Source: a bacterium
GTDB lineage: Bacteria > Patescibacteriota > Minisyncoccia > Phycocordibacterales > CAIZLB01
DNA: 61,350 nucleotides
Assembly: GCA_031411135.1 (NCBI GenBank)
Contig: JANOAN010000004.1
Location: 1-61,350 of the forward strand
Direction of reading: 5' to 3'
A program made the position numbers and the translations under genes. How positions within the stretch are numbered: the stretch's first letter is position 1; every line of letters begins with the position of its first letter. Positions 836-45,311 of this stretch are shown here, one piece after another. Below the pieces are notes generated by a model, which was given only the letters and a program-made list of their open reading frames with translations, ran no database searches and was not told the origin of the DNA.

Positions 836-930
836 AAAATGGGTGATAGACTTTAAGTCAGGCTAGTCCTTTGATTTCGGTTCGGAGGATTGTGGAGGCA
901 TTCTAATTTAACCCCAGAAAGGAGGTCGTT

Positions 931-1380
931 ATGAAGTATATGTTTCTAATCCTGGCGGCCTTTGTTTTTACATGGCATCCAGGAAAATCAGAAAAAGAAA
1001 AACATGAGGAAGCTCGTGAAAGATGTTATGCCGAACACTGTAAGATCGCAGAAAAAATCATGAAAAGGGAAGTTTGGTGGATACAACGCCCTGGTGTCAT
1101 TACCGAAAACCAAGATGGAACTGGTGAGCTGATTAATTTCTGTACGGCGCCGTCTGCAGAAAATGATTTTTACAAACCAGGACTTTTCACAGGACTCAGG
1201 AAAATGTTTGAGGTTAGTGCCGACACTTGTCCTGATCTCGTGGGTCGTGCAAAACAAGAATGGCCGATTCAACCGGAGGTTCGGTTTGAAAGGTTCGAGA
1301 CAAATACCGGAGGTAAGAGGTTTCTCGTCTGCAATGGGTTGCTGTGGATGAGGTTCGTTGATTCAAATTCGTCACCGTAG
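931..1380 (+). CDS. Hypothetical protein (149 aa) with N-terminal hydrophobic segment; GC-rich cassette A
   Basis: The ATG is preceded by GGAGG (921-925). N-terminus MKYMFLILAAFVF. No family recognised. Composition is visibly GC-richer than uvrB and uvrA. Confidence 0.55.
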   Translation: MKYMFLILAAFVFTWHPGKSEKEKHEEARERCYAEHCKIAEKIMKREVWWIQRPGVITENQDGTGELINFCTAPSAENDFYKPGLFTGLRKMFEVSADTCPDLVGRAKQEWPIQPEVRFERFETNTGGKRFLVCNGLLWMRFVDSNSSP

Positions 1381-1544
1381 TGCAAAGATTCGTCTAGGCA
1401 TTCTGGTGGCGAGTTTTTGTATTGGGTTGATAAGATTTTAAGATTGGACTACCATGGTACTCGGAACAGAGTTCCAGTGTTTTTGGCGTTTTTACGTCGA
1501 GGACTATCACCCACAACAAGAAATTCAAAATAGAAAGGTAAATT

Positions 1545-2171
1545 ATGCTCAGAAAAGGTCACCCAACAAGGTGGATGGCTACCATTATCGGGAAGCCAAA
1601 TGCAGGAAAAGGGACGCTCTTTAACGAGCTGAAAAAGCGGTTCAACGGATTTATCGAGGTCAGCCTTGGTGATATCTGTCGATGGCACAAAACTCAAAAC
1701 ACAGAGCTTTGGAAGGAATCTGAAAAGTACATGCGGGTTAATGAAACCAGCTTGTGGCCAAGTGAAGCTCTATGCTCTGCGGTGGATCATCATCTCGAAG
1801 TTTGCGATGAAGGTGGAGTCCTTATTTTCGACGGCTTGCCGCGTCGCACCGACCAAGTAGAGTTGGCGTGCGAGTTGGCGCATCGATTCGGGTGCGACGG
1901 GATTCGTGTTTTTCACGTTGAGACTGCTGACTCAGTGTGCGAAGAACGGGCTGCTACTAGACAGCGCCCAGACGACGCTGAAATCGCCAGGAGGCTATAC
2001 GAGTATCACGAGTACACTCTTCCTGCGATCTCCGCACTTTTGAACTGCGGTGCTATCCATGTCAACTTCGTGACGCTAGACAGTACCGAAATGAAAGCAA
2101 TGGCTCCAGGTTATGCACAGGCCATTGCTACACTTCAAGGTCTTCAACCACGAGTGCTTGTCAGCACTTAG
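1545..2171 (+). CDS. Adenylate-kinase-like P-loop nucleoside-monophosphate kinase (208 aa); GC-rich cassette A
   Basis: P-loop IIGKPNAGKGT, a DGLPRR motif (compare DGFPRT of Adk) and a short LID-like RQRPDD segment. AAAGG lies 8 nt upstream of the ATG. A strong terminator follows. Confidence 0.6.
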   Translation: MLRKGHPTRWMATIIGKPNAGKGTLFNELKKRFNGFIEVSLGDICRWHKTQNTELWKESEKYMRVNETSLWPSEALCSAVDHHLEVCDEGGVLIFDGLPRRTDQVELACELAHRFGCDGIRVFHVETADSVCEERAATRQRPDDAEIARRLYEYHEYTLPAISALLNCGAIHVNFVTLDSTEMKAMAPGYAQAIATLQGLQPRVLVST

Positions 2172-2196
2172 TGATACTTCCAGTGTTCATAACCCA

Positions 2197-2232
2197 CGCG
2201 CCGCCACCCTTCGGGGAGGCGGCGCGTTTTGA
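2197..2232 (+). terminator. Intrinsic terminator of cassette A
   Basis: GCGCCGCC (2198-2205) pairs with GGCGGCGC (2219-2226), followed by a T-run. Confidence 0.8.
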
Positions 2233-2333
2233 TTTCTGCTAAACATTTACAAACCCCCTAAAAAAGCTTAATATATCTTCACATAAATCACACACCCCCA
2301 CACGGACCGTCCATGGGGTTTTTCACATAATAT

Positions 2334-4964: not shown

Positions 4965-4969
4965 GTAAA

Positions 4970-13088: not shown

Positions 13089-13754
13089 TTAGTCCATGTG
13101 TATGGGTTTATACTTTAAATAACCGTATACAACGTCAATAATTTTCTGAAGGAATTCAGCAGCGTAAGAGTTTTTTATCTCAAAGTAATATTTTTTTGTC
13201 CTAGAAATAAAATAAATATAATCTCTAAATGAGATTATGGTGCAGTGACCAGATAATTTATCTTCTAAAAATCGAGCAGAACCACTTCTGTTTCGCAAGG
13301 CGTCACTGTCATGATTGGTCATGTTTTTTTGAAAAAAGTCTAAAGCATCGGTACTACCAATACCTTTTAATACGATTTTGTTTTTCACTGCTTCTTTTTG
13401 CCAATCTAATAATTTTTTCCTGTTATTAAAAAGAGACTGAATTTCCTCATCTGATTCTATAGAATAAACAATCTCACCTTGTTTTAAATTTAGAATTTCT
13501 TTTAGAAGTTGATCAATAAGCAGGGAAGTGGTGTGTGGAGTATTTACCTTGTTTATTCTGTTGTTAATTGAATAATTAAAACCATTTTTTATAACTAAAT
13601 TTTCTTCAACTAATTTCTTTAAGCTAGAATAAATACTCGTTCTCGCAATATTTAATCTTCTAGAGATGTTAGAAATATTCGATGTTCCAAGGGATTTTAA
13701 TGATTCAACTATTGAGGCCTCGGTTGGTTTTAGAATTAAGTATTCCCGACTCAT
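13089..13754 (-). CDS. Winged-helix (TrmB/MarR-like) transcriptional regulator with an uncharacterised C-terminal domain (221 aa)
   Basis: The N-terminus SIVESLKSLGTSNISNISRRLNIARTSIYSSLKKLVEENLVI is a typical wHTH. The C-terminal domain has no recognised family. Confidence 0.6.
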   Translation of the reverse strand: MSREYLILKPTEASIVESLKSLGTSNISNISRRLNIARTSIYSSLKKLVEENLVIKNGFNYSINNRINKVNTPHTTSLLIDQLLKEILNLKQGEIVYSIESDEEIQSLFNNRKKLLDWQKEAVKNKIVLKGIGSTDALDFFQKNMTNHDSDALRNRSGSARFLEDKLSGHCTIISFRDYIYFISRTKKYYFEIKNSYAAEFLQKIIDVVYGYLKYKPIHMD

Positions 13755-16296: not shown

Positions 16297-16369
16297 GGGC
16301 CCTTAGCTTAGTTGGTAGAGCGCCTCATTTGCACTGAGGAGGTCAGCGGTTCGAATCCGCTAGGGTCCA
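16297..16369 (+). tRNA. tRNA-Ala (anticodon UGC), no encoded CCA
   Basis: 73-nt cloverleaf. Acceptor GGGCCCT/AGGGTCC with the G3:U70 Ala identity pair. Anticodon stem CCTCA/TGAGG with loop TTTGCAC. T arm AGCGG-TTCGAAT-CCGCT. Discriminator A. Confidence 0.95.
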
Positions 16370-16405
16370 CTCGAAGGTTTCAATGACTTATGTTAAAATT
16401 ATTTG

Positions 16406-16663
16406 ATGATAGAAAAGCAGACAGAAGACAATATCGATAAGCTAATATCAGAAGGCAAAAATACAGTAGAAATATCCGAAGTTTTAAAATCCAAAGGATT
16501 GACTGATGAACAAATTAATTCGACTGTTCTTGAGTATAATAAAAAGAGTTTAGAAACAGCCAGTTCAATTAAAAAACCCAATACAACTCTAACTTTGGTT
16601 GCTACGCTTATTGCGATTGTCGCCCTTTCCTATTTATTTTTTAATCTATTTCAAAATAATTAG
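16406..16663 (+). CDS. Small protein (85 aa) with a C-terminal TM helix
   Basis: ORF with an ATG at 16406 (TTG at 16403 in the track). C-terminal TLTLVATLIAIVALSYLFF. No family recognised. Confidence 0.4.
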   Translation: MIEKQTEDNIDKLISEGKNTVEISEVLKSKGLTDEQINSTVLEYNKKSLETASSIKKPNTTLTLVATLIAIVALSYLFFNLFQNN

Positions 16664-16684
16664 TTAACCAGTACTGATATATAG

Positions 16685-17120
16685 GGAAAAGAGTACTATA
16701 AACATCTCCCTGGAAATCTAAAAGATCTAAGAAAGTGTTTACAAGAGGATATTGTAGGACGTTGGGAAGTAAGAAAGAACCCTATTAAGCAGACTAGTTC
16801 TATAACTAGATATGAATACAGGCTGAATGGGGAAACAAAAATGGCTTATACTGAAAAAATAGGTGATGGTGACATGACGGAAGATGACAATAAAATAATG
16901 GATATTGCAATCGAAAATTCCCCCGTTGATAAGTACACTTTTAATGATGGGATGATTTTTTGTGAAATTTGAAGGTGGAGTCGGGCTACCTATTGTTTGT
17001 TTGATTGCAGAAAAAGATACGAGCTTTGAAGATCAGAGTGTAAAGATGGGTGAAATGGTTAATGTATATTTCACCAAGCAAAATGACCTAGCATTTTTTG
17101 AGGTTGTTAGTAGGATTTAG
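16685..17120 (+). pseudogene. Disrupted ORF: frame 2 (open 16685-16972, first ATG at 16841) continues in the next frame to 17120 after a T6 tract
   Basis: Hand translation gives ...MAYTEKIGDGDMTEDDNKIMDIAIENSPVDKYTFNDGMIFCEI*. Removing one T from TTTTTT (16956-16961) joins it to VKFEGGVGLPIVCLIAEKDTSFEDQSVKMGEMVNVYFTKQNDLAFFEVVSRI*. Confidence 0.3.
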
Positions 17121-17191
17121 TATTTTATTTAAATATTTCAACTCGTTTACTATCCGGTTTACAAAAAAACATCGAAATACACACGATATTT
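17115..17191 (+). repeat. Copy A of an ~80-bp direct repeat flanking the 686-aa surface-protein gene
   Basis: By eye, roughly three quarters identical to 19313-19392. Shared core: ATTTAG...TTTAAA.ATTT.AACTC..TTAC.ATCCGGT..ACAAAAA..ACATC. Confidence 0.55.
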
Positions 17192-17243: not shown

Positions 17244-19304
17244 ATGTCAAATAAAGTATTTAAAACACACAAAATAATCCAAAAGGGATTGTTAATAATA
17301 AGTTTTTTATTTTTGAACTTTTTTACAAATCCAACAAGTGCAAGTGCTAACGCGTATTGGCATAACGGCGTTGGCAATTTGGATGATGTTGGATCTTGGT
17401 ACATAAATTCAGCTCTCCAAAGTCCAGCAAATACAGTACCTACAGCAGGAGATGTTGGTTATATTAATGGTGGCACCACACTAACACAGACAGGCAGTGT
17501 CTCAATAGACTATACTTTAAATATAGAAAACGGTGGAATAATAAATACGAGTAATATTGGAACTATAACAATAGCTGATGGTGGTGTTATAAATATAGAA
17601 AATCAAGGAACGATGACTGTAGATGATGGTGGAATATTAAACATCTTGAATGGAGGAACTTTAAATATAAACAGTGGGGCCACCTTCACACAAAGTAATA
17701 CATCGTGGAGTATTGCTGGAAATGCAAATGTTTATAATTCTCAAACAATTACTAGTGGGTATACATGGACAGTAACTAGTGGTGCCATTTTAACAATTCA
17801 AGATGGAGGAAATTTTACAGTTGCTAACGGGGGAGGATTAACAATTCAAGATGGAGGAACTTTAAACATAAACAGCAGCGCCACCTTCACACAAAACAAC
17901 GCGTCGTGGAATATTGATGGAGTTATAAATATCTCAAATAGTCAATCTATATCTAGCTCAAAAACATGGACTGTGGCGGGTACTGGATCCTTAAATGTGA
18001 TAAATGGTGCAACTTTGACAACAGATAGTGGTGGAGCTTTAAGTGTAAATAGTGGAGGTACGTCGAATGTAAATAGCGGTGGAATTATGAATATAAATAG
18101 TGGAGGAATTGTGAATATAAATAGCGGTGGAATTTTGAATATAAATAGCGGTGGAATTTTGAATATAAACGATGGGGCTACTTTTACACAAAACAATTCA
18201 TCGTGGAACATTGGTGGGGTTGTAAATGTCTCAAATAATCAATCTATATCTAGCTCAAAGGTGTGGACTGTGGCAAGTGGGGGTAGTTTGAGTCTTGATA
18301 ATGGTGGAATATTTACTATAAACACTGGTGGAAACCTAACTATAGATAGTAATGGTACCCTGGGTATTGGAAGCTTAGGTGTTTTTAATAACAATGGCAC
18401 TATGTCCAATAATGGATCTGCTATTAATAATGGAACATGGAGAAATTTTGGAACAGTCGTTACCGGAGCCTCCGCAACTACAACAAATAATGTCTCAACT
18501 GCGTATGAATTGACAGGTACCGTTGGTTCTCCTGTGTCAACTTACACTCTTTCATCACAAACAGGTCATGTTACTACAAATTACAACGTTGTACTTTCAC
18601 ACTCGCCAAACAGTTGGTCTGCGACAGGACTTCCTGCAGGTCTTTCTATCAATTCGAGCTCCGGGGCAATTACTGGAACTCCGACCATCTCAGGTAATGG
18701 AAGCACAACTGTGGTTTCAATAAATATTAGTAGTGGTAGTTTTGCTATACAAGTTATCAATTATAATTTCGTTATTGCACCATCAGGTGGGAGTTCGACA
18801 GTGATACCTGGTGGACAAACAGGAGGAGGTTCATCAAGTATAGGTGACACAAGAATTATATTTGATAATAAATCACCTCTAAATAATACTCAAGATTGCA
18901 CAAAAGGACAGAAATTTAACACAAAAACAGGACAACCTTGCATCACGGTAGGTAGTACAAACAGCACAGCAGACACGGTCGCAACACCAAAGGGTATTGT
19001 TGTGAGTATCGATGACTTTAACAATACCGCACTCTCACAAGGTTTTAGGTTTACTTCAAATTATGCAATTATGGATATAAATATGGATATTGTTAATCTT
19101 CAAGTATTTTTAAATAGGGTTGGATTTCCTGTCACTACTTCAGGATACGGGTCACAAGGATTAGAAAATAAACGTTTTGGTCCAGCTACACAAGCAGCCC
19201 TCATAAAATTCCAAAAAGACAAGGGTATTAAGCCAGCAGTTGGTTATCTCGGTCCGATTACAAGAAACAAGATTAATGAAATATTGATGTCGATTGGTTT
19301 TTAG
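17244..19304 (+). CDS. Large secreted repeat protein (686 aa) with a C-terminal peptidoglycan-binding domain
   Basis: Signal-like N-terminus and beta-helix-like GGxLNINSG repeats. An Ig-like segment (LPAGLSINSSSGAITGTPT). C-terminal PG_binding_1-like FGPATQAALIKFQKDKGIKPAVGYLGPITRNKI. TATAAT (17230-17235) lies 8 nt before the ATG. Confidence 0.8.
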   Translation: MSNKVFKTHKIIQKGLLIISFLFLNFFTNPTSASANAYWHNGVGNLDDVGSWYINSALQSPANTVPTAGDVGYINGGTTLTQTGSVSIDYTLNIENGGIINTSNIGTITIADGGVINIENQGTMTVDDGGILNILNGGTLNINSGATFTQSNTSWSIAGNANVYNSQTITSGYTWTVTSGAILTIQDGGNFTVANGGGLTIQDGGTLNINSSATFTQNNASWNIDGVINISNSQSISSSKTWTVAGTGSLNVINGATLTTDSGGALSVNSGGTSNVNSGGIMNINSGGIVNINSGGILNINSGGILNINDGATFTQNNSSWNIGGVVNVSNNQSISSSKVWTVASGGSLSLDNGGIFTINTGGNLTIDSNGTLGIGSLGVFNNNGTMSNNGSAINNGTWRNFGTVVTGASATTTNNVSTAYELTGTVGSPVSTYTLSSQTGHVTTNYNVVLSHSPNSWSATGLPAGLSINSSSGAITGTPTISGNGSTTVVSINISSGSFAIQVINYNFVIAPSGGSSTVIPGGQTGGGSSSIGDTRIIFDNKSPLNNTQDCTKGQKFNTKTGQPCITVGSTNSTADTVATPKGIVVSIDDFNNTALSQGFRFTSNYAIMDINMDIVNLQVFLNRVGFPVTTSGYGSQGLENKRFGPATQAALIKFQKDKGIKPAVGYLGPITRNKINEILMSIGF
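18024..18167 (+). repeat. Six tandem 24-bp units encoding (N/D)SGGxxx(V/I)
   Basis: Encodes DSGGALSV NSGGTSNV NSGGIMNI NSGGIVNI NSGGILNI NSGGILNI. The last two units are nearly identical at the DNA level. Confidence 0.85.
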
Positions 19305-19312
19305 AAACTTCT

Positions 19313-19392
19313 ATTTAGAATCTCTTTTAAAGATTTTAACTCACTTACAATCCGGTCCACAAAAATTACATCCAAGTCCACTCGTAATATTT
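19313..19392 (+). repeat. Copy B of the ~80-bp direct repeat (see 17115-17191)
   Basis: Starts 9 nt after the stop of the 686-aa gene. Aligned by eye to copy A. Confidence 0.55.
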
Positions 19393-19468
19393 CCCCCTCA
19401 TACCCGTCATAACTCCAGCTAGTGTCAGTATTTCGAATTACAGAGTTTAGGGCTACAATCCCTGACCC

Positions 19469-19496
19469 TTGACATTTCTAAAATACTACATATAAT
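19469..19496 (+). promoter_or_regulatory. Consensus promoter TTGACA-16-TATAAT
   Basis: TTGACA at 19469-19474 and TATAAT at 19491-19496. The ATG follows 9 nt later with no SD. Confidence 0.6.
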
Positions 19497-19505
19497 ACTA
19501 AAACT

Positions 19506-19640
19506 ATGACAAAAAAGCAAAATCAACTGAATGCTAGAAATCACGTCCGAAAAGGATCTGCTTTTTTTGCTGTGTCACCAAACAACTATAAAATTTCTGC
19601 GACTATCGCGGGGAAATTACGCTGTGTTCAAAGAACTTAA
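19506..19640 (+). CDS. Stand-alone mini-gene (44 aa, basic); could instead be a small RNA
   Basis: Hand translation gives MTKKQNQLNARNHVRKGSAFFAVSPNNYKISATIAGKLRCVQRT. It is bracketed by a consensus promoter and an intrinsic terminator and is too short for the ORF track. Confidence 0.35.
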   Translation: MTKKQNQLNARNHVRKGSAFFAVSPNNYKISATIAGKLRCVQRT

Positions 19641-19661
19641 AAACTAATCATTTTTAAGTCC

Positions 19662-19693
19662 AAAAAACACCGCGTAAATCGCGGTGTTTTTTG
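19662..19693. terminator. Intrinsic terminator (A-run/T-run on both sides)
   Basis: CACCGCG (19668-19674), loop TAAAT, CGCGGTG (19680-19686), then TTTTTT. Confidence 0.8.
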
Positions 19694-19752
19694 TTCTTTA
19701 GCTCTTTACAATTCAACACAACACGAACACAAACAGAAAGGAATCGGTAAAA

Positions 19753-21543
19753 ATGAAATCGGAAAACAAATCAAAAAAAGATGGGTCTAATCCACTCTTC
19801 TTCCTCTTCAGAGAGGTTTGGCACTACTCGGTTGGAAACAGGAAAAATGTTGTTCTTGTCTGGATGATTTTCATCATCGCAGAAACTTTTAACATCCTTA
19901 TCCAGCCGCAGATCTGGGCCAAAGTTATGGATGTCGTTCAGAGTGAAGGCGTGACGAGTGGAAACATTCGCACGCTACTCGCTCTTCTTCTCTCAACAAT
20001 GGGAGCCACGGCAGTCTTCTGGTTTATCCATGCTCCTGCAAGAGTCATGGAAAACATGAATGCATTCAAAGTCAGGCTGGCGTATCGAAAACATCTCCTT
20101 CGAGGTGTTATGACGCTACCTTTGGAATGGCATGCAGGCCAGCATTCAGGAGAGATTATCGACAAAATTGAGAAGGGCATCCAAGCCTTGTATCAGTTCA
20201 CGAAATACTCTTTTGAAATCATCTATGCAATTGTGAGGTTCTTTGGTAGCTTCATTATGCTGGCTTACTTGTTCCCACCCTCAGCGGCTGTCGTCTTTGT
20301 GATGATGGTCCTAACGTTTTGGGTCGTCACACGCTTCGACAAGATACTGATAAGTCAATATCGTGAGCTGAATCGAAATGAAAATAAGATCTCAGCAAGT
20401 GTTGTCGATTCAATCGGCAACATCGTCACGGTGATCGTTCTTCGCGTCGAAAAATTAATCTTTAACGCGATTATCAGTAAAACAGAAAGACCCTACGAGC
20501 TGTTCAAGAAAAACAGCAGGATGAACGAGGTCAAGTGGTTTATCACTTCAATGTGTTGCTCGGCGACGATTGTTATCGTTCTCGGCACATATTTCCTTCA
20601 GCACATTGGTGCTAGAGGAGGGGTTTTGTTCGGAGAAGTATTCTTGCTTTACAGATATCTCGGTAACATTGGTGACATCCTCAACAGATTCACCAACCTG
20701 TACAGCGACACGGTACAACGCAGGGCAAACGTGGCAAATGCAGAGGAACTTTCCGCGGACTTCCGCGATGAGAGCTTTGCAAACCATGTCCTGCCTGACA
20801 AGTGGCAGAACCTGAGCATCAATGGGCTGACCTTCTCTTACGAAAACGCAGGAGAACCGAGATTGCATCTCGATAACGTCTCATTGCAAATCAAACGCGG
20901 CGAGAAAATTGCTGTCGTCGGAGGAAGTGGCAGTGGTAAAACCACTTTCCTAAAGATCATGCGTTATCTTTACCACCCATCTGAATTAAAACTATCGGTG
21001 GATGGTCAGGAAATTTCACAAGGTTTCGACGGGATTGCCAGAGCCATCACTCTTGTTCCACAAGAGGCTGAAATTTTCGCGACAACCGTTCGCGAAAACA
21101 TCACCCTCGGAGCAGATTATTCCGACGATGTGATAATGCGTTACGTCGAAATGGCAGGACTAACTGAGGTGATCGCAAGGTTACCGAAAGGGTTGGACTC
21201 CATGATGAATGAAAAGGGAGTGAGCCTAAGTGGAGGCGAAAAACAGCGTCTGGCACTGGCCCGCGGGTTTCTCGCTTGTGCCGGCGATGATAAAAGCATA
21301 CTGCTCTTTGATGAGCCCACCAGCAGTCTCGATGTCAAAATTGAGAGGGAAGTCTACCGTAAAATATTCGATGGGTTTAATGGGAAGACCATGATTTCAT
21401 CGATTCACAAACTGCATCTCCTGCCGCTTTTCGACAGGATATGCATGTTTGCAAACGGACAGATCATTGCAAGTGGAACATTTGAGGAATTGTCAGCAAG
21501 TTGTACCGAGTTTCGGGAGCTTTGCAAGCAATATACTCAGTGA
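19753..21543 (+). CDS. ABC exporter, fused permease-ATPase (596 aa); GC-rich cassette B
   Basis: Six-TM N-terminal domain. Walker A GGSGSGKTT, signature LSGGEKQRLALAR and Walker B ILLFDEPTSSLD. No C39 peptidase domain. AAAGGA lies upstream of the ATG. Confidence 0.9.
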   Translation: MKSENKSKKDGSNPLFFLFREVWHYSVGNRKNVVLVWMIFIIAETFNILIQPQIWAKVMDVVQSEGVTSGNIRTLLALLLSTMGATAVFWFIHAPARVMENMNAFKVRLAYRKHLLRGVMTLPLEWHAGQHSGEIIDKIEKGIQALYQFTKYSFEIIYAIVRFFGSFIMLAYLFPPSAAVVFVMMVLTFWVVTRFDKILISQYRELNRNENKISASVVDSIGNIVTVIVLRVEKLIFNAIISKTERPYELFKKNSRMNEVKWFITSMCCSATIVIVLGTYFLQHIGARGGVLFGEVFLLYRYLGNIGDILNRFTNLYSDTVQRRANVANAEELSADFRDESFANHVLPDKWQNLSINGLTFSYENAGEPRLHLDNVSLQIKRGEKIAVVGGSGSGKTTFLKIMRYLYHPSELKLSVDGQEISQGFDGIARAITLVPQEAEIFATTVRENITLGADYSDDVIMRYVEMAGLTEVIARLPKGLDSMMNEKGVSLSGGEKQRLALARGFLACAGDDKSILLFDEPTSSLDVKIEREVYRKIFDGFNGKTMISSIHKLHLLPLFDRICMFANGQIIASGTFEELSASCTEFRELCKQYTQ

Positions 21544-21580
21544 TCCAAATGTGATGATCGGTGTTGAATAATCAAAATGA

Positions 21581-21612
21581 CCCGCGATACGAAAGTATCG
21601 CGGGTTTTTGTT
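21581..21612 (+). terminator. Intrinsic terminator of the ABC exporter gene
   Basis: CCCGCGATAC (21581-21590), loop GAAA, GTATCGCGGG (21595-21604), then TTTTT. Confidence 0.85.
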
Positions 21613-23995: not shown

Positions 23996-24031
23996 ATAAG
24001 ATTTTTCACTGATAATTTACCGGTATTTAAA

Positions 24032-24064
24032 CTTGACTTTTCTATCTTTAAAGATAGAGTCAAG
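24032..24064 (+). terminator. Imperfect hairpin between surface-protein genes (possible terminator)
   Basis: CTTGAC-TTT-TCTATCTTT pairs with AAAGATAGA-GTCAAG. No clear T-run. Confidence 0.3.
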
Positions 24065-24105
24065 AACATCTTTCGGTGGGAAGGATTTATTAAATAATTA
24101 ATATT

Positions 24106-26623: not shown

Positions 26624-26700
26624 GTAGTATTGACTTTTTATTATATCTGTATTATATTATACAAGTTATAGCTCTTTTAAATAAGTGATATTTTTTCTAT

Positions 26701-26751
26701 TTAGCCAGAGCTAAAAGCCCATTTTTTAAATCGGTTTTTAGCTCTGGCTAA
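26701..26751. repeat. Perfect 16-bp inverted repeat with a 19-nt spacer at the low-GC/high-GC boundary
   Basis: TTAGCCAGAGCTAAAA (26701-26716) pairs with TTTTAGCTCTGGCTAA (26736-26751). No T-run after it on the plus strand. Confidence 0.7.
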
Positions 26752-26827
26752 GGAATCCAAAGTGGATTTCAAGGCTTGAGCATCAACACAACACCCACAA
26801 GAAACAACGCAGAAACCTACAGCAAAT

Positions 26828-27421
26828 ATGGCAATTATTGAACTTGGGAAGGGTCGTATGACCATGCACACCACTCGTGAAAAAAACAAAACATCTGTGA
26901 CTGCTCGAAAGGGCGTCACGATTTACAACAGCGGACAGGTGATAGTCGCTAGTCCTGCTGGTCGGGTTCAGGTCATTCTCGAAAAAGATGGCCTTGAGAT
27001 TGTCGGTAGCACATTCCAGCTCGGTACAAACTCACCTCGGACAACCTCAGGAAAAGCCTTCTCCTGTCTCGTCGAAGAGTATGCGCTCGGTCCGATTCAG
27101 GTCATGAACGCAGCGATGGGAAATGACAAAAATCATCCTGGGGAAATGGTTGCCTCCAGGCTCTACACCGGAGAAATGTCATTTTCACTTGCGCAGGCAA
27201 GTGAAATTCTGATCGACACCCACACCTGGGGTTTGTACGCAGATCCTGATCACACGCTGATCATTCCCGTCCACAACGAGGCTGGTCGCATCGTCTATCT
27301 CGTCGGTAACTACCAACGCCGCCTAGAACGGTGGAAAATGAGGGTCTCGAAACTTCTCGGGCGCGGTCCTGATAAGGGAGCGATGGTCATTCTGAGGAAT
27401 CGGCCGTCGAAGCAAAAGTAA
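26828..27421 (+). CDS. Hypothetical protein (197 aa); GC-rich cassette C
   Basis: Long ORF, 31/60 G+C at 27001-27060, with its own strong terminator. No family recognised. The alternative start MTMHT is preceded by GGGAAGGG. Confidence 0.55.
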   Translation: MAIIELGKGRMTMHTTREKNKTSVTARKGVTIYNSGQVIVASPAGRVQVILEKDGLEIVGSTFQLGTNSPRTTSGKAFSCLVEEYALGPIQVMNAAMGNDKNHPGEMVASRLYTGEMSFSLAQASEILIDTHTWGLYADPDHTLIIPVHNEAGRIVYLVGNYQRRLERWKMRVSKLLGRGPDKGAMVILRNRPSKQK

Positions 27422-27431
27422 TCGGCGAATC

Positions 27432-27480
27432 AGACCCGCGCAGCGCACTTCAATGTTGCGCCGCGCGGGTCTTTTCTTTT
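27432..27480 (+). terminator. Intrinsic terminator of cassette C
   Basis: AGACCCGCGC (27432-27441) pairs with GCGCGGGTCT (27463-27472), with an inner GCGCA/TGCGC helix, then a T-run. Confidence 0.85.
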
Positions 27481-27529
27481 TCCTCCTTTTTCATGCTATT
27501 ATTTTTACATACAAAATAATTTTTAATCA

Positions 27530-28871: not shown

Positions 28872-29918
28872 CTGAGTTCAACAAGTAAGCACACCACTCT
28901 GTTAACCTAGAGTGATATGAATTACAAGCATTTGAGCATCGAAGAATGCGAAAAGATTCAAACAATGATATGGGAAAAGAAGTCCATTCGGGCCATTGCA
29001 AGAGAGTTGGGACGATCTCACACCACATTGTCTCGTGAGATTAGAAGACACAATCCCGAAGAGATTAAGCGGTACACACCACGTCTAGCACAAATACGTG
29101 CCAAGGAGAGAACTAAATCACGTGGTAGGAAGGATCGTCTAAAGAATGAAACTGTTCGTACATATGTTAAGGAAAAATTGAAAATGAACTGGTCACCTGA
29201 ACAGATATCTGGATGTATTAAATCTGACACAGGATTCACCATCTCTCATGAGGCCATCTACCAATATGTGTACTCACAAGTACATCGAAATGGTTGGGGT
29301 TTGTTGAAGCCAAACCATGAAGATTTACGAATATGTTTACGTAGAAAAAGAAGGAGAAGATAGAAGCAAGGTCTGCGTCGCTCCCAGAGGATATTTAGGT
29401 TACGTGGAACATCGATTGAACAACGACCAAAGGTTGTTGATCAACGTAAACGCATCGGTGACTGGGAGGGTGACACGGTGGAATCGTGTAATCACAAACC
29501 CGGAGTTAACACTCTGCTTGAGAGAAAGACAGGGTTGTTTTTAATTACAAAAGTTAAAAACAAAACCAGTGGTGCAACTACAATTGCAATTGAAAAGAGA
29601 ATGCAAATATTACCTGACAGTGTGAAGAAAACCCTCACTTTGGACAATGGTTTTGAAAACAGTGACTGGCAAGGTATTGAAGAAAAGACAGGACTCAAGA
29701 CCTTCTTCGCTCATCCGTACTCATCACATGAAAGAGGTGCTAATGAGAATGCTAATGGACTCCTCAGAGAATATTTCCCTAAAGGCACAGACTTTACTAC
29801 AATATCTGATGATGAAATACAAAGAGTTGAGTATTTAATCAACACAAGGCCGAGAAAACGCCTTGGCTGGAAGACACCATTACAAGCCATGATTGGTGCA
29901 CTTCAAGGTTGAATTCAG
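28872..29918 (+). mobile_element. IS30-family insertion sequence (~1.05 kb; ends approximate)
   Basis: The transposase ORF fills the element. The candidate imperfect terminal inverted repeats are CTGAGTTCAAC (28872-28882) and GTTGAATTCAG (29908-29918), matching at 10 of 11 positions. Confidence 0.7.
28917..29912 (+). pseudogene. IS30-family DDE transposase, single reading frame interrupted by one in-frame TAG (29361-29363)
   Basis: N-terminal HTH (SIRAIARELGRSHTTLSREIRRHN) and WSPEQISG. Reading past the TAG in the same frame gives KQGLRRSQRIFRLRGTSIEQRPKVVDQRKRIGDWEGDTVES..., then the DDE core (TLDNGFEN...HERGANENANGLLREYFPKGTDF). The track ORFs at 28917 and 29478 are in the same frame. Confidence 0.85.
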
Positions 29919-29929: not shown

Positions 29930-29958
29930 TTGACACTTTACCATATAAATGTTATTAT
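29930..29958 (+). promoter_or_regulatory. Promoter TTGACA-17-TATTAT upstream of the PEP-CTERM gene
   Basis: TTGACA at 29930-29935 and TATTAT at 29953-29958. An AT-rich context abuts a GC-rich ORF. Confidence 0.45.
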
Positions 29959-30074
29959 ATTTAAGGACTATCTATCTCCATACAGGAGGGTGTTTTTTAA
30001 CCACCTGCGCTAATGCGCGACACAGGCAGAAGCTCTAAGAGTTTTTGCTGTAGATAATTCGAAGAACGATTGAC

Positions 30075-31043
30075 ATGAAAAAATACGCACTACTTATGCT
30101 CGCGATTTTCATCGCAGCGGGCGCCATGGCGGACACATCGCTGTGGGTTGGGGTGAATGAATTCACCGGGTCATCAGGAGCCGAGAAATATATCGGGCTA
30201 TACGAAAATGGAGTCCGAACCCAAAAAGTGTTTTCACCGCAAACGGAGGTCGGGACTTACCAAGTTCGTGATCTCATCCAGATTGACGTGGGGCACGTCG
30301 CAGTTTTCAACGGCACGTTCACACCGACTCTCTGGAACTATTCACTGGATCCCCATGAGACATCGTCGCTGACGGGTTTTACGGAATGGTCGAGTACAAA
30401 TGTTACCTACAGGGGCGGTCTCGCCAAAATGGGAAACATGCTCTACCTCTCCGACGAGATGACTTACAACGGCGGGGAGGCTTACGGAATCATTCAGTAC
30501 GACCAGACTGCGGGGACCGCGATTCGCTTTGCGACGGATTTCCAAAGTATGGACCTTGCAGTATCCGGCAACTACATCTACGGTATGGATGGTAACGGAA
30601 AGGTCAACAAGTACGATCCAAGCCTCAATCTGGTTTCCACCGTGACATTGCCGAACGTCGGAAACTACATGGGTCTTGGTGTTGGCGTCGAGGGAGACCT
30701 TTACGTGTCATTCTCTACCTGGCTGAACGGAAACAAGGAAATCCAGAAGTTCTCGCCAGCCGGTACGTTAGTGAAATCGCTGATTGTTCCGAACGTTGGA
30801 GGCATGGGCGACATCGACATAGATACGCTCACTGGTGCCATCGCAGTTGGGACTACAAACTCGGGCATGGTTGTTATCACTGACACCAATCTCGATAGTT
30901 ACTCCTCATTCCGTGCTACTGACAGTGAGTCGGGGGGTAGTACGTTCGTCGCATTTGCCCAAAATGTTCCCGAACCAGGGAGTGCGACACTCATACTTCT
31001 CGCCGGCGGCTTGTTTGCCGGACGAAGAAGACGATCGAGATAG
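30075..31043 (+). CDS. Secreted beta-propeller-like protein with a canonical C-terminal PEP-CTERM sorting signal (322 aa); GC-rich cassette D
   Basis: Signal peptide MKKYALLMLAIFIAAGAMA. C-terminus NVPEPGSATLILLAGGLFAGRRRRSR (PEP, then a hydrophobic helix, then an Arg cluster). 33/60 G+C at 30481-30540. Confidence 0.8.
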   Translation: MKKYALLMLAIFIAAGAMADTSLWVGVNEFTGSSGAEKYIGLYENGVRTQKVFSPQTEVGTYQVRDLIQIDVGHVAVFNGTFTPTLWNYSLDPHETSSLTGFTEWSSTNVTYRGGLAKMGNMLYLSDEMTYNGGEAYGIIQYDQTAGTAIRFATDFQSMDLAVSGNYIYGMDGNGKVNKYDPSLNLVSTVTLPNVGNYMGLGVGVEGDLYVSFSTWLNGNKEIQKFSPAGTLVKSLIVPNVGGMGDIDIDTLTGAIAVGTTNSGMVVITDTNLDSYSSFRATDSESGGSTFVAFAQNVPEPGSATLILLAGGLFAGRRRRSR

Positions 31044-31064
31044 AGAGAATCTCGATTCGAAAAC

Positions 31065-31098
31065 AACGCGCAGGGCCTCCACAGGTTCTGCGCGTTTT
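31065..31098 (+). terminator. Intrinsic terminator of cassette D
   Basis: AACGCGCAG (31065-31073) pairs with CTGCGCGTT (31088-31096), then TTTT. Confidence 0.75.
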
Positions 31099-39081: not shown

Positions 39082-39109
39082 AAAAAGGCCCCTCTCGGGG
39101 CTTTTTGTT
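39082..39109. terminator. Bidirectional intrinsic terminator after rpoC
   Basis: AAAAAGGCCCC, loop TCTC, GGGGCTTTTT. Confidence 0.85.
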
Positions 39110-39121
39110 TTGCGTCCAGTA

Positions 39122-39156
39122 GAAAAGGCGCGTCCGGTGGTGTTCCAGACGCGCCC
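39122..39156 (-). terminator. Intrinsic terminator of cassette E (minus strand)
   Basis: GGCGCGTC (39127-39134) pairs with GACGCGCC (39148-39155). The T-run is present on the minus strand only. Confidence 0.75.
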
Positions 39157-39179
39157 TTGGGTTGGGGGGGTAATTCTCC

Positions 39180-39554
39180 TCAGCTTTTCCTTCCAGTCAG
39201 CCTCAGGATTCCGAATGCGAAGGCCAGGAGGAATATGCCTTTCATTGCCTCGACAAAGATTTTCGCACACTTGTGTATGATCTGTAGGTCGTTCCAGTCC
39301 TGGATATTGATTGCTGTTGGAGCAATCAACACCAGCGCCCCTTCGATGCAGGTCGGCGTGGTATAGCCGTAGGTTGCCGAGGAATAACGGTCGTTATAAG
39401 TCGGTTCGTACGTATCCACACTTTTCCTGTATTCGTCCCACTTTTGTTCCGGGATGTCTTTGCCCTTACTGCGGGCGTAGTCTTCGTCAGTGTCCGCCTT
39501 GGCGGCGCCTGAGAGGATTGAGAGGATTGCGATGATTGTATGGATGATTTTCAT
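39180..39554 (-). CDS. Hypothetical secreted protein (124 aa) with a C-terminal hydrophobic anchor; GC-rich cassette E
   Basis: Signal peptide MKIIHTIIAILSILSGAAKA and C-terminal GIFLLAFAFGIL. No family recognised. Its 5' leader is shared with the gene at 44651. Confidence 0.55.
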   Translation of the reverse strand: MKIIHTIIAILSILSGAAKADTDEDYARSKGKDIPEQKWDEYRKSVDTYEPTYNDRYSSATYGYTTPTCIEGALVLIAPTAINIQDWNDLQIIHKCAKIFVEAMKGIFLLAFAFGILRLTGRKS

Positions 39555-39696
39555 GAATGGGTTGGTTTTCGTGGAAGGCCCATGGTCGGAATGACGCCGG
39601 GCTTTCTTCCAAAACCAAACTTCTCAAAGATCTATATTATATAATAATGCACTATATACACCCACTTGTCAACCCCATCTAAACCCCAGCAAAATA

Positions 39697-39948
39697 ATGT
39701 ATAATTACCCCATGAAAACCCTCCCAGAAATCAAAGCCCAAATAGAGCACATGATAAATATGTACGAAGGAACCGAGCCTGGCTACCAGATTTCCTACTA
39801 CCACGGTCATGACAAATACGAGGAAAAAATATATAAAGAAATTCATGACTTTCCAGATTCAAAGGAAAAAATTGAAGTGTTAATATTACTTGAAAAGTTG
39901 AATAAAATTCACTATGAGCTTAGAGTAAGTCTAACTAACGCAAAATAA
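39697..39948 (+). CDS. Hypothetical small protein (83 aa), translationally coupled to dnaG
   Basis: TAATG overlap with the dnaG start at 39948. No family recognised. Confidence 0.5.
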   Translation: MYNYPMKTLPEIKAQIEHMINMYEGTEPGYQISYYHGHDKYEEKIYKEIHDFPDSKEKIEVLILLEKLNKIHYELRVSLTNAK

Positions 39949-41726: not shown

Positions 41727-41729
41727 AAT

Positions 41730-43061: not shown

Positions 43062-43086
43062 AAAAGGGATTTTGAAAGTAAGTTTG

Positions 43087-43128
43087 AAGTCGCCCATTGT
43101 TAATTAATTAACAATGGGCGACTTTTGG
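43087..43128 (+). terminator. Perfect 38-bp palindrome followed by a T-run (rpoD terminator)
   Basis: AAGTCGCCCATTGTTAATT (43087-43105) pairs with AATTAACAATGGGCGACTT (43106-43124). Confidence 0.8.
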
Positions 43129-43140
43129 TGTCTATGAAAA

Positions 43141-43200
43141 AGAAAAACCGCCCCGACCAAGAAAAGCGCCGGGGCGGTTTTTCTTGATGGGAGCGGCAGG
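43141..43200 (-). repeat. Terminator module, copy 1 (hairpin ACCGCCCC...GGGGCGGT plus a conserved 3' flank)
   Basis: AGAAAAACCGCCCCGACCAAGAAAAGCGCCGGGGCGGTTTTTCTTGATGGGAGCGG. By eye about four fifths identical to 44745-44805. It sits directly downstream of the stop at 43201. Confidence 0.75.
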
Positions 43201-43692
43201 CTACTTCTCGTGAGCCCTGTTGTATTCAATCGGGTTTTCCAGCCACCGGTAGAATTCTGGGAAGTTGGTTCCAGAAGGTCCAGGTCCTCCTTTTGCCCAA
43301 GCCTCGGCGATTTTCAGATCGGCAGTTGTCGCCAGAGTGATTGCAGGACCACTGCCTTCACTCCAGAAGAAGCAATAGCGGCCGGGCTGCAGATCTTTCG
43401 AGAAGGTCTTGATGAGGTCGATATCACTTTTCCGATCGAAGGTCGTGCGGTGACTCTTGAACTCATACGATTGACCCGGCAGGTCAACTGTCTTTGCAGT
43501 GAAGCCATTGTGGTCCACTTTCTCGATCTGATAGACACGGCCGAGGTGGGGTTCCTTGTTGGATCTCCAAGCGATCATGCAAAACATGATGGCACCAAAT
43601 ACCAATGTTGCGAGCATGAGGATGTGTGGTGGCTGGAGCTTTCCATGATTACGGCCCATGGAGGGGCTTGGTTTGTGTGGTGTGGTTTTCAT
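43201..43692 (-). CDS. Hypothetical single-pass membrane protein (163 aa from ATG 43692; TTG at 43722 in the track); GC-rich cassette F
   Basis: TM helix ILMLATLVFGAIMFCMIAW. No family recognised. Minus-strand promoter TTGACA (43773-43778), 17-nt spacer, TATATT. Confidence 0.55.
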   Translation of the reverse strand: MKTTPHKPSPSMGRNHGKLQPPHILMLATLVFGAIMFCMIAWRSNKEPHLGRVYQIEKVDHNGFTAKTVDLPGQSYEFKSHRTTFDRKSDIDLIKTFSKDLQPGRYCFFWSEGSGPAITLATTADLKIAEAWAKGGPGPSGTNFPEFYRWLENPIEYNRAHEK

Positions 43693-43784
43693 AGAAAAAC
43701 CTTTGATGTAAAGACTTTTCAATGAAAACCACGAGAACTTCTAAAAAGTAATATAATACAAATATGTGTAAATGTCAATGAATA

Positions 43785-43819
43785 ACAAAAGGCCGGAACG
43801 CTTTTCGCGTTCCGGCCTT
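43785..43819 (-). terminator. Intrinsic terminator (minus strand) of the JAB-like gene
   Basis: GGCCGGAACGC (43791-43801) pairs with GCGTTCCGGCC (43807-43817). The T-run is on the minus strand. Confidence 0.8.
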
Positions 43820-43820
43820 G

Positions 43821-44651
43821 TCACAAGTAGAAGTGTTTTTGCTGTCCCCTCATGGTCAGGATGGCAAGCTCGTCGGCCAGTCTTTCGGTGATTTCCTCGT
43901 GGCGTTTTCCGACTTTATGGAAAGCCTGCCAATGCTTCTTTTTGGCTTCCTTGAATGTCCGCAGCTCTTGTCCTTCCAGCTTCTCCGTCAACATGATGTC
44001 CACTTTGCCGATCACGCTTTTTTGCGGAACCAGCTTATATGCATCGAGGTGCCAGAGAGGTTTTCCTTCCCGGAGGTTATTAGTGATCAGAAGGTGAGTG
44101 TTACCAGGTGTGAACTGGATGTCTGCCGGTGAGAGTTGTCTTGCAAACGTTTCATTGACGACCATATCCATCGAAGGTTTTCTGCCATCGACGCTTAGAT
44201 AATCAAAGACACCACTTGCTAGTTCTTCCTCCAGGATTTCAAGGTAAGCCTCTGCTTCTCCTGGCCACATGTCGAGCATCTGGTCTTCACCTGTGTTTGG
44301 ATGCGAGTGGTAGAGGACGGTGTGCACACCGTCATGGGACTCTGCAAAGGCTCGAGTCACTTCGTCCTCGAATACCCACCAGGCTCCTCTGATGTCAGGT
44401 TCGAGAGCCACCTCGCGAACCTGAGGTTCCCAGAGAGGATAGAGTTTCCCTGAACATAGGGGATTGATCGAGACGACATAGAATACGCCGTCACGATACA
44501 CGCCAGTCAGGAATCCTGAATTTTCAACTGGGGCAAACGAATCTGCTTTAAAGTTCTTTACGAACAACCTCGGAATCGCGAACTTGACGACACCGGGTTG
44601 GTTGAGCGCGAGCTCTTGCCAAACGGGCGTCGTGGTTGCGTCGATTTTCAT
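43821..44651 (-). CDS. JAB/MPN-like (JAMM) domain protein with an uncharacterised C-terminal half (276 aa); GC-rich cassette F
   Basis: PVENSGFLTGV (the E-x-x-G-x-L-x-G context of the JAMM Glu) and VLYHSHPNTGEDQMLD (HxH plus a downstream Asp). The canonical Ser is not evident. 33/60 G+C at 44341-44400. Confidence 0.4.
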   Translation of the reverse strand: MKIDATTTPVWQELALNQPGVVKFAIPRLFVKNFKADSFAPVENSGFLTGVYRDGVFYVVSINPLCSGKLYPLWEPQVREVALEPDIRGAWWVFEDEVTRAFAESHDGVHTVLYHSHPNTGEDQMLDMWPGEAEAYLEILEEELASGVFDYLSVDGRKPSMDMVVNETFARQLSPADIQFTPGNTHLLITNNLREGKPLWHLDAYKLVPQKSVIGKVDIMLTEKLEGQELRTFKEAKKKHWQAFHKVGKRHEEITERLADELAILTMRGQQKHFYL

Positions 44652-44744
44652 TTATTGGGTTGGTTTTGGTTTGTGACAAGTTGCTTGTCTGAAAACATAG
44701 TACAATATTTATATAAAAAGTCAAATTTACTAAATATATATAAA

Positions 44745-44805
44745 AAGAAAAAACCGCCCCAACCAAGAGAAACCACGGGGCGGTTTTCCTGATAGAAGCG
44801 GGGTG
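44745..44805 (-). repeat. Terminator module, copy 2
   Basis: AGAAAAAACCGCCCCAACCAAGAGAAACCACGGGGCGGTTTTCCTGATAGAAGCGG, directly downstream of the stop at 44815. Confidence 0.75.
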
Positions 44806-44814
44806 TGATGTAGA

Positions 44815-45228
44815 TCAGCCGAAGAGTTCAGCGAGGATCGAGGCTGTCATTGGGCTGAGACGATCAGGGGTGATTTGATATCTCACACCATCGGACTCGA
44901 ATGAGACACGTCCCTGCTCAGAGATCGAGACAGGTGTGGAACTCATCATGACTTCGATTATCTGTTCTCCGTCAGGACTCATCTGGTCTCCTAAAGTCTC
45001 GTCTCCCACAATCCTGAAAGCGCATTGCGGCACTTGCAGGGTCAGTTTGTCCCCCGAGTAGTCGAAGTTCTTAATCTTTCCTATGCGGGTGACACGTTGA
45101 CTACCCTCTACTTTGGTGAAGGTGATGTGAACTTTTGCAATGATCAGCCATTCGATCGTGTAAGGCCAGTCAGTTTTCCTGACGGGGTCGGTTGCTGCGG
45201 TTGGTGTTTCTTCTGTGTGTGAGGACAT
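44815..45228 (-). CDS. Hypothetical protein (137 aa from ATG 45228; the track start at 45276 lies inside a 19-bp hairpin); GC-rich cassette F
   Basis: ORF MSSHTEETPTAATDP...ILAELFG. No family recognised. The start codon is uncertain. Confidence 0.5.
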   Translation of the reverse strand: MSSHTEETPTAATDPVRKTDWPYTIEWLIIAKVHITFTKVEGSQRVTRIGKIKNFDYSGDKLTLQVPQCAFRIVGDETLGDQMSPDGEQIIEVMMSSTPVSISEQGRVSFESDGVRYQITPDRLSPMTASILAELFG

Positions 45229-45268
45229 TGTGTGTATGGTAAATGTTTGTAGTGACACGCCAGTAATT

Positions 45269-45311
45269 GGACGCATCTTTTAAGGCACAGAATGCCTTAA
45301 AAGATGCGTCC
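45269..45311. repeat. Perfect 19-bp inverted repeat with a 5-nt loop between divergent genes
   Basis: GGACGCATCTTTTAAGGCA (45269-45287), loop CAGAA, TGCCTTAAAAGATGCGTCC (45293-45311). No T-run on either strand. Confidence 0.8.

Follow-up and report, generated by a model that had tools for sequence, protein, structure and literature searches.

Six blocks of G+C-richer DNA between the housekeeping operons of a Candidate Phyla Radiation (CPR) bacterium are confirmed to be real, laterally acquired units of accessory genes, each set in an intergenic slot. They lie in a 61-kb stretch of DNA (61,350 nucleotides of contig JANOAN010000004.1; hereafter the window, in whose coordinates all features are given), where the slots have uvrB/uvrA, rpsP/KH/trmD, rpoBC, dnaG/rpoD and a helicase gene as neighbors, and their nine open reading frames (ORFs) are named here by block, from C1a to C6c. 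In this clade the slots act as hotspots that hold unrelated cargo, very distant homologues or nothing. The phenomenon is a clear instance of genome flexibility of an already known kind, and the units are read here, with moderate confidence, as islets of the flexible genome, that is, moron-like units turned over at permissive slots, probably by DNA uptake and recombination through the flanks.

Composition and architecture of the cassette units

A step in composition had been proposed in a first-pass annotation of this DNA from five spot counts on 60-nt lines; all five counts are exact, and the step is seen both in sliding windows and in codon usage. The whole window has 39.4% G+C, the six blocks as first delimited have 0.46-0.53 versus 0.33-0.44 in the 600 bp on each side, and none of the native 500-bp windows exceeds 0.46 (mean 0.381, standard deviation 0.036), while cassette-internal windows average 0.479. 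At third codon positions (GC3) the nine cassette ORFs range from 0.41 to 0.65 and 37 native genes from 0.24 to 0.39, with no overlap (Mann-Whitney p = 2e-6); measured against the native mean of 0.312 (standard deviation 0.044, n = 37), the cassette values correspond to z = 2.3 to 7.6, the least deviant gene being C1a (931-1380; GC 0.44, GC3 0.41). A leave-one-out codon-usage likelihood classed 48 of 48 genes correctly, two fragments of an IS30-family transposase gene being grouped with the natives. The shift extends to GC1 and GC2 and to the amino-acid classes GARP (0.25 in cassette versus 0.20 in native proteins) and FYMINK (0.27 versus 0.32), with p = 0.001-0.007, and since it reaches beyond silent sites the cassette proteins evolved under a GC-richer regime, probably in a background of roughly 50-55% GC. 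Where a GC step could be placed, it lies on or close to the block edge as first drawn. For eight of the 12 edges the distance to the largest local step is about 10-80 bp, and for the left edge of block 3 about 160 bp; at blocks 1 and 5 the GC-step scan could not place the left edge. Judged against relatives, the variable DNA extends slightly beyond the first limits of block 2 (19305-21606) and block 3 (26624-27486).

A cassette unit would consist of a host-type promoter box, a G-poor leader, one ORF and a hairpin terminator, with one to three such units per islet. Predicted promoter boxes (9-12 of 12 matches) stand upstream of C2, C3, C4, C5, C6a, C6b and C6c, and C1a and C1b have no clear box; native genes are preceded by equally good ones. 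The boxes had been noted before as cassette features, which holds for these seven units, but in at least one slot they are resident host DNA, the window and a relative sharing promoter and leader there. Predicted hairpin terminators do follow the units, as had been claimed, though that of C1a is weak, strong GC-rich terminators also follow the native rpoC, KH and thrS genes, and two of them (T_a and T_c in slot 6) are copies of a native terminator. A single ORF with its own predicted promoter and terminator would fit the definition of a moron given in PMC4378225 (after Juhala/Hendrix).

A supposed abundance of Shine-Dalgarno sequences in the cassettes was not borne out: such a sequence precedes two to four of 10 cassette ORFs as well as several native genes (p = 0.23, not significant), the genome being largely devoid of them. 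Most window genes have no recognizable Shine-Dalgarno sequence (mean anti-Shine-Dalgarno duplex energy about -0.9 kcal/mol), and several leaders, such as those of uvrA, C2 and C3, are CA-rich and G-poor by eye. Strong 5' hairpins occur in cassette units at 45267-45313, 43682-43732, 39555-39640 and 26701-26751; that at 43682-43732 is a 23-bp stem (-23 kcal/mol) over the C6a start codon. These hairpins could be translational regulators or by-products of recombination.

Pfam and NCBIfam recognize three of the nine cassette proteins (C1b, C2 and C4), the other six having no family, and five of the nine look like envelope or exported proteins, judged from signal peptides, transmembrane segments and the exporter.

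The slots in related genomes

RpoC places the window in the Paceibacteria/Parcubacteria (CPR), and among the species-level genomes of the collection searched the best match is a metagenome-assembled genome (MAG) of Ca. Taylorbacteria, with 70% RpoC identity. Loci of 10 kb on each side of rpoC were compared in 80 distant relatives. The order rpsP-KH-trmD-rpoB-rpoC-dnaG-rpoD(-helicase) is kept in them, and none of these loci encodes a cassette protein. The rpoC-dnaG gap is typically 60-140 bp versus 880 bp in the window, the rpoD-helicase gap about 50-120 bp where the genes are adjacent versus 2332 bp, and the KH-rpoB gap goes down to about 850-1100 bp, equivalent to trmD alone, versus 3337 bp; KH and trmD adjoin in these relatives. 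Their genomes span 33 to 64% GC, so that the class includes GC-richer members from which cargo could have come.

Seven closer relatives (R1-R7) were found through near-identical cassette proteins, DnaG orthologues and a UvrA cluster. R3 is the closest with junction data (DnaG 91%), R7 is a 790-kb contig (L111) and the R1 contig that lacks block 3 is L083. Synteny bears out the placement of blocks at the uvrB/uvrA, KH/trmD, rpoC/dnaG and rpoD/helicase junctions, and in relatives the corresponding junctions hold other cargo or none. Capture of foreign units, as first proposed, stands insofar as the units are compositionally foreign accessory genes, but not all are private to the window, since the ABC-exporter block, C6a and C6b occur at the same loci in close relatives. 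Different genes or divergent versions, the mark of replacement islands, are found at uvrB/uvrA, at rpoC/dnaG (four or five cargos) and at rpoD/helicase (three states).

The features of slot 5 are:

39107-39672, minus strand: slot 5, between rpoC and dnaG
about 39121-39158: terminator
39180-39554, minus strand: C5, 124 aa, signal peptide and C-terminal transmembrane segment, GC3 0.65
39555-39640: leader with hairpin
39644-39672: TTGACA-17-CATTAT box, whose -35 overlaps a divergent box on the dnaG side
39697-39948, plus strand: 83-aa ORF directly upstream of dnaG, with a homologue in R2 (31% identity, E=3e-13)

Minus-strand cargo of GC 0.44-0.55 occupies this position in several genomes: C5 in the window, a 157-aa protein in R3, a 129-aa protein in R2, a 149-aa protein in R6 and a transporter of the major facilitator superfamily in R1, while R4 has no cargo. 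Identity between the proteins of R2 and R6 is 27%; C5 has no more than 13 residues in common with the R6 protein, and the R3 protein is unrelated. In the window and R3 the promoter box and a leader of about 110 nt with a GC-rich hairpin are 86% identical up to the ATG; past it the two ORFs are unrelated, and the sequences become alike again at the rpoC terminator.

Between the cargo slot and dnaG, a conserved element of about 250 nt resembling a structured RNA is found in R1, R3, R4 and R6 (L098 5300-5551, L093 2075-2326, L099 8055-8308 and L109 4193-4445). It is absent from the window, and the window and R2 have an ORF of 83-93 aa there instead. Read on the minus strand, it has an acceptor-like closing stem, a T-arm (GGGUUCGAUUCCC) and a long helix with four compensatory changes and about 10 G.U pairs, and its 5' end overlaps the dnaG start codon. 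Identification as a transfer-messenger RNA or tRNA was rejected: Rfam and ARAGORN were negative, and there is no G3:U70 pair and no clear tag ORF.

Slot 6 contains three units:

43122-45361, minus strand: slot 6, between rpoD and the helicase gene
43133-43200: terminator copy T_a
43201-43722, minus strand: C6a, probable start 43692
43750-43778, 44697-44724 and 45333-45361: promoter-like boxes
43789-43819: terminator
43821-44651, minus strand: C6b, 276 aa, weakly JAMM/MPN-like
44739-44805: terminator copy T_c
44815-45276, minus strand: C6c, 153 aa
45267-45313: perfect 21-bp hairpin over the C6c start codon, -36 kcal/mol

The rpoD/helicase junction of R3 measures 108 bp and holds no cargo; R4 has only a 222-aa gene of native composition, followed by terminator T, and R2 has a native 225-aa gene, C6b, C6a and a 77-aa gene, followed by T. 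In the window the order is C6c, T_c, C6b, C6a and T_a, the native terminator being duplicated (83% identity) around C6b and C6a. This T repeat (43133-43200 and 44739-44805) was considered as an attachment site and rejected, as in R4 it is the terminator of the native 222-aa gene, which is convergent with rpoD. The third unit of block 6 is corrected: C6a is encoded on the minus strand, with a nonsynonymous to synonymous rate ratio (dN/dS) of 0.15 versus 1.35 for the overlapping plus-strand ORF; for C6b the ratio is 0.07.

C6b has four homologues among 5.8e9 proteins. Genomic context is available for one in Ca. Parcubacteria and one elsewhere, and the gene GC is 0.48 versus 0.41 and 0.50 versus 0.43 in their surroundings. 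A histidine pair (H115-x-H117) is invariant in five homologues, and the top Foldseek matches are all JAMM/MPN proteins, at weak values (E 0.015 or worse, TM-score about 0.2, model pLDDT 56). No Pfam match was obtained, the Sx2D part of the JAMM zinc site (E...HxHx7Sx2D) is not evident and a PDB sequence search was negative.

At slot 1 both sides of the variable DNA could be aligned:

836-2243, plus strand: slot 1, variable region between uvrB and uvrA
931-1380, plus strand: C1a, 149 aa, signal-peptide-like, GGAGG Shine-Dalgarno sequence, GC 0.44
1545-2171, plus strand: C1b, 208 aa, adenylate-kinase (ADK)-like P-loop protein, GC 0.51, Pfam ADK E=1.6e-16
about 2197-2232: terminator hairpin

Nucleotide homology with R7 ends at 856 and restarts at 2243, with 81-86% identity in the flanks on both sides. 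There R7 carries an AT-rich 437-aa gene and a GC-rich ADK-like gene (GC3 0.55) that is 24% identical to C1b. R7 also has, between a peptidase S11 gene and tgt (L111 2870-4351), a GC-rich trio of genes encoding 67, 77 and 247 aa (GC3 0.49-0.56), and GC-rich islets are therefore a property of the clade, found also at junctions outside the window.

Block 3 is a single-gene unit:

26624-27486, plus strand: block 3
26630-26658: promoter-like box TTGACT-17-TATATT
26701-26751: AT-rich 24-bp hairpin upstream of C3, -33 kcal/mol
26828-27421, plus strand: C3, 197 aa, GC3 0.55
about 27433-27480: terminator

R1 lacks 26624-27486 entirely, including the AT-rich promoter stretch and the hairpin, and passes from the upstream stop codon through about 50 bp to DsbB. 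C3 is an ORFan with a single weak match among 1.84e9 representative proteins, and its structure model is unusable (pLDDT 32).

Block 2 holds a candidate peptide gene and an ABC exporter:

19305-21606, plus strand: block 2, peptide and ABC-exporter module
19307-19390: repeated motif of 85 nt
17109-17189, plus strand: second copy of the 85-nt motif, nhmmer E=2.6e-15
19469-19496: perfect TTGACA-16-TATAAT box upstream of the 44-aa ORF
19506-19640, plus strand: 44-aa ORF (MTKKQNQLN...KGSAFFAVSP...KLRCVQRT)
19661-19693: terminator of the 44-aa ORF
19753-21543, plus strand: C2, ABC exporter, 596 aa, GC3 0.52 (Pfam/NCBIfam)
21579-21606: bidirectional terminator at the block end

C2 is a half-size ABC exporter of the type I secretion or bacteriocin-export kind (Pfam/NCBIfam). 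Over 19314-21577 the block is 89.7% identical to R1 at the nucleotide level, versus 68-82% or unalignable flanks; the ends of this tract are sharp and intergenic, and its synonymous divergence (pS) of 0.27 is the lowest of the genes compared (rpsP 0.34, rpoC 0.46, others 0.60-0.72). By this measure the ABC-exporter block is younger than its flanks. R5 carries the module (82% aa identity, GC3 0.44) downstream of the same tRNA-Ala gene. The 44-aa ORF is kept in R1 (70% aa identity, dN/dS 0.29), a similar ORF is seen by eye in R5, and its product may be an exported peptide with a dedicated exporter. A search of metagenome contigs for a donor of the exporter returned only one further relative of the clade and distant homologues of 23-28% identity.

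Block 4 follows a remnant of a mobile element:

28917-29363 and 29478-29912, plus strand: IS30-family transposase pseudogene in two ORFs, directly upstream of cassette 4
29930-31098, plus strand: block 4
29930-29958: TTGACA-17-TATTAT box
30075-31043, plus strand: C4, 322 aa, signal peptide and PEP-CTERM sorting signal, GC3 0.59, PF07589 E=3.6e-5
about 31065-31098: terminator

After KH, R1 has other GC-rich DNA (0.53), without IS30 or C4. The top homologue of C4, 40% identical, lies in a metabolically complete genome of 63% GC and non-CPR type, and weaker ones have 31-34% identity, one of them being named Rhodocyclaceae. The 40%-identical homologue (L091) comes from run SRR20217191, an accession adjacent to SRR20217193, which holds the window's own C4, and the C4-related gene family may be present in co-resident Gram-negative bacteria.

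An assembly chimera or contamination, in which GC-rich foreign fragments were mis-joined in the contig of a MAG, might be suspected because the contig comes from a metagenome bin. Six short internal insertions, with host-type promoter boxes and precise intergenic placement, are unlike chimeras. In independent assemblies, made from separate runs and studies, GC-rich cargo again lies within these flanks (L081, L082, L083, L093, L098, L108 and L109), and the IS30-C4-trmD arrangement is reproduced in a second assembly (L107, SRR20217193). Since cargo between both flanks recurs in assemblies from unrelated runs, a chimera is very unlikely, to the point of being negligible.

Contigs of close relatives (among them L098, L107, L092-L097 and L108-L110) are nearly all 2-9 kb long, and at least two end at variable slots, L098 about 140 bp past T and L107 at IS30. 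This suggests that strain heterogeneity at the slots fragments short-read assemblies.

Route of acquisition

The units could have been placed by a dedicated site-specific or transpositional system, whether integron-like, mobilized by IS30 or depending on an integrase outside the window that targets a tRNA or tRNA-like element. One IS30 copy does abut cassette 4, in three lineages tRNA-Ala is found about 3 kb upstream of the ABC block, and the tRNA-like element of the relatives has its 3' end facing the rpoC/dnaG slot. Direct repeats also bracket cargo, an 85-nt repeat around a swappable gene and a 65-nt repeat around C6b and C6a. Against this, Pfam and NCBIfam scans of all cassette ORFs and unannotated native ORFs of the window revealed no integrase, resolvase or intact transposase, the remaining window genes being housekeeping by orthology. 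The earlier statement that no recombinase is visible apart from one IS30 thus agrees with these scans, and the IS30 is itself a split pseudogene (HTH_38 domain, GC3 0.34-0.38, native-like codon usage), for which no terminal inverted repeats, second copy or flanking duplication were found. Slot boundaries differ between slots, and they show no shared core, attC-like imperfect palindrome or edge repeat of 8 nt or more. There is no repeat of the tRNA-Ala 3' end within three to five mismatches and no target duplication, and the cassette 3' ends are ordinary stem-loop and T-run terminators of unrelated sequence, except for T_a and T_c. The 65-nt repeat proves to be a native terminator, that of an ancestral gene, and the likeness of the 85-nt motif to tRNA-Ala is no better than that of shuffled sequences, so that its reading as a tRNA 3'-end scar was rejected. 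The defining features of integron cassettes, tRNA-targeted islands and insertion-sequence composites were looked for and are absent, and the units therefore belong to none of these classes. A dedicated system is considered unlikely.

Prophage remnants, or phage morons delivered by transduction, would account for the architecture, since a promoter, a single ORF, a terminator and deviant composition, in an insert between two genes that stand side by side in relatives, make up precisely the architecture of a moron (PMC4378225). Phage structural, replication and integration genes were not found nearby. A phage or defense origin of the cassettes was rejected on searches of PHROGs (one weak P-loop match), PADLOC (nothing beyond generic P-loop and ABC matches) and viral contigs (no relative in scans for C6b, C3 and C1b), and delivery by phage is given a very low probability.

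Turnover by DNA uptake and recombination, the reading favored here, would be independent of any recombinase. DNA would be taken up from relatives and neighbors and integrated by homologous recombination through the conserved flanking genes, the resident promoter and leader and the terminator, with occasional illegitimate joins; ORFs may be swapped in this way behind resident expression signals. Slots between essential, conserved operons would tolerate insertion without operon breakage, and a cargo of envelope, secretion and transport proteins together with orphans would fit strain-level adaptation of the cell surface or of interactions with hosts or phages. This route is plausible because the window encodes a type IV pilus locus (53471-57429, with T2SSE in the orthologue), natural competence has been demonstrated in Saccharibacteria (PMC10633639) and replacement flexible islands of other bacteria are proposed to be exchanged by homologous recombination (PMC4033161; Lopez-Perez, Martin-Cuadrado, Rodriguez-Valera). 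The first-pass annotation had left the route unexplained; the pattern is now one of replacement and additive flexible islets at hotspots, for which recombination is the probable route.

Hundreds of genomic islands and single-gene transfers are reported in Patescibacteria, mostly within the phylum, and competence has been proposed as their route (PMC12455944). Judged from homology, the cargo sources appear mixed, largely a pool within the Patescibacteria plus at least one gene of Gram-negative type, in agreement with that report. A host or neighbor of higher GC had been suggested as the source, but a single host donor of higher GC is not indicated: C6b has at least one homologue in another Parcubacteria genome, the nearest homologues of C4 include one in a genome that does not look like CPR and one named Rhodocyclaceae, and C3 is an ORFan.

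Several points weigh against this account. No recombination tract was shown in the flanking genes, and a candidate mosaic in rpoBC ending at the rpoC/dnaG slot was rejected: the order of relatives by pS is the same for all genes, and the high rpoBC identity therefore reflects constraint. Synonymous sites among the available relatives are near saturation (pS 0.4-0.8). No donor was identified for any cassette, and the negative result for recombinases covers the 61-kb window, so that one elsewhere in the genome is possible. After normalization for base composition, the tetranucleotides of the pooled cassettes correlate with the host at r=0.78, within the 0.51-0.82 of native chunks of the same size, and by that measure the cassette DNA is therefore not strongly foreign; tetranucleotide donor matching was uninformative or host-like. 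Finally, C6a and C6b have pS of 0.67 and 0.49 versus R2, like their flanks (0.62-0.73), yet they are GC-rich in both lineages, which therefore implies an old acquisition with slow amelioration or a force that maintains GC.

The last two points lead to a further possibility, namely that the genes come from an accessory pool of the clade itself and that their high GC was made or kept locally, for example through selection or through GC-biased gene conversion at hotspots of recombination. It would explain the host-like normalized tetranucleotides and the GC-richness of C6a and C6b in two lineages despite a pS of 0.5-0.67; moreover, cargo is GC-rich in each relative examined and cargo of the same family recurs at the same slot. 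However, GC1, GC2 and amino-acid composition are shifted along with GC3, and the GC3 excess of +0.24 is, to our knowledge, far beyond the effects reported for biased gene conversion in bacteria. Empty sites in close relatives, C4 homologues in non-CPR genomes with PEP-CTERM systems and variable genes of native composition (225, 437 and 686 aa) at the hotspots also argue against it, and a local origin of the GC-richness seems rather improbable.

A more specific version of the uptake account, that the slots are recombinase-free "expression sockets", is regarded as possible but doubtful. In that case a promoter and leader on one side and a terminator on the other would serve as homology arms by which competent CPR cells exchange single ORFs drawn from a shared GC-richer accessory pool, a functional analogue of integrons driven by transformation and homologous recombination. 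Such exchange would account for homology that breaks off exactly at the start codon, for a native terminator that is reused and duplicated and for very divergent cargo of the same family at fixed positions.

Known systems and the surroundings of block 2

In architecture the units would be morons in a cellular chromosome, and in behavior miniature replacement and additive flexible genomic islands. Flexible islands are usually AT-richer than the core genome, and the islets described here are GC-richer. They share with the flexible islands of PMC4033161 the occurrence of different genes or divergent versions at the same locus, deviant composition, exposed and transport cargo, the lack of a dedicated recombinase and an exchange proposed to proceed by homologous recombination through conserved flanks. 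They differ in size, being 0.5-2.3 kb with one to three genes rather than tens of kb, and in that one slot has its swap boundary at the start codon, behind a shared promoter and leader. Flexible islands are also known in streamlined genomes (PMC10872708).

Like phage morons, the units are single ORFs of deviant composition with their own promoter and terminator between genes that are adjacent in relatives; unlike morons, they are set between housekeeping operons of a cellular chromosome, and the searches revealed neither phage genes nor viral relatives. The islands of PMC12455944 belong to the same phylum and class and are likewise compositionally detectable acquired DNA, but they were obtained with automated predictors of islands and horizontal gene transfer on MAGs, whereas the present analysis rests on slot-by-slot comparison with close relatives, promoter reuse and divergence dating. 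With integron cassettes the units have in common that promoter-proximal single ORFs vary at a fixed locus, slot 5 having a resident promoter and interchangeable ORFs; in contrast to them there is no intI, attI or attC, the units come with a terminator, and often a promoter box, of their own, and they are spread over several unrelated loci. The principle, flexible islets and horizontal transfer in Patescibacteria, is already known; the slot-level comparison, the promoter reuse and the divergence dating are particular to this locus.

In the CPR/Patescibacteria, genomes are tiny and streamlined and life depends on other cells, which makes the way in which these bacteria acquire and renew accessory functions a practical question. 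At base resolution, turnover is seen here to concentrate in a few slots between essential operons, with a GC-richer pool, reuse of resident promoters and no need for mobile-element machinery. If the recombination route is true, the slots would be natural landing pads for engineering competent CPR bacteria as well as markers of strain diversity.

Further variable DNA surrounds block 2. The two copies of the 85-nt motif bracket a 686-aa repeat-protein gene in the window, and in R1 they bracket a different, GC-richer gene for a 115-aa membrane protein. The motif is a direct repeat present twice in each genome, and copies lie in contigs of relatives as well (L084 2499-2582 and 3233-3317; L101 1902-1974). 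Every copy, read on the minus strand, encodes a similar peptide tail (V-D-F-D-x-x-F-V-N-R...S-E-L...L-stop), and the motif may therefore be a gene remnant that has been repeated. Within the 686-aa gene (17244-19304), about nine degenerate tandem repeat units of 24/48 nt, NGG-rich and beta-helix-like, occupy 17568-18313, and the gene also encodes a C-terminal peptidoglycan-binding domain. Nearby genes at 22712-25575 encode PG_binding_1 with TIG, PKD and SpaA-like domains, which points to a cluster of cell-surface proteins.

Two stretches, at 13089-13754 and 16403-17100, are unusually AT-rich (GC 0.30); they hold a TrmB/MarR-like helix-turn-helix gene and, immediately after tRNA-Ala (16297-16370), some small ORFs. 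In the matching region R7 has a HicA toxin gene between thrS and lepA, and these stretches may constitute another variable region, of opposite compositional sign.

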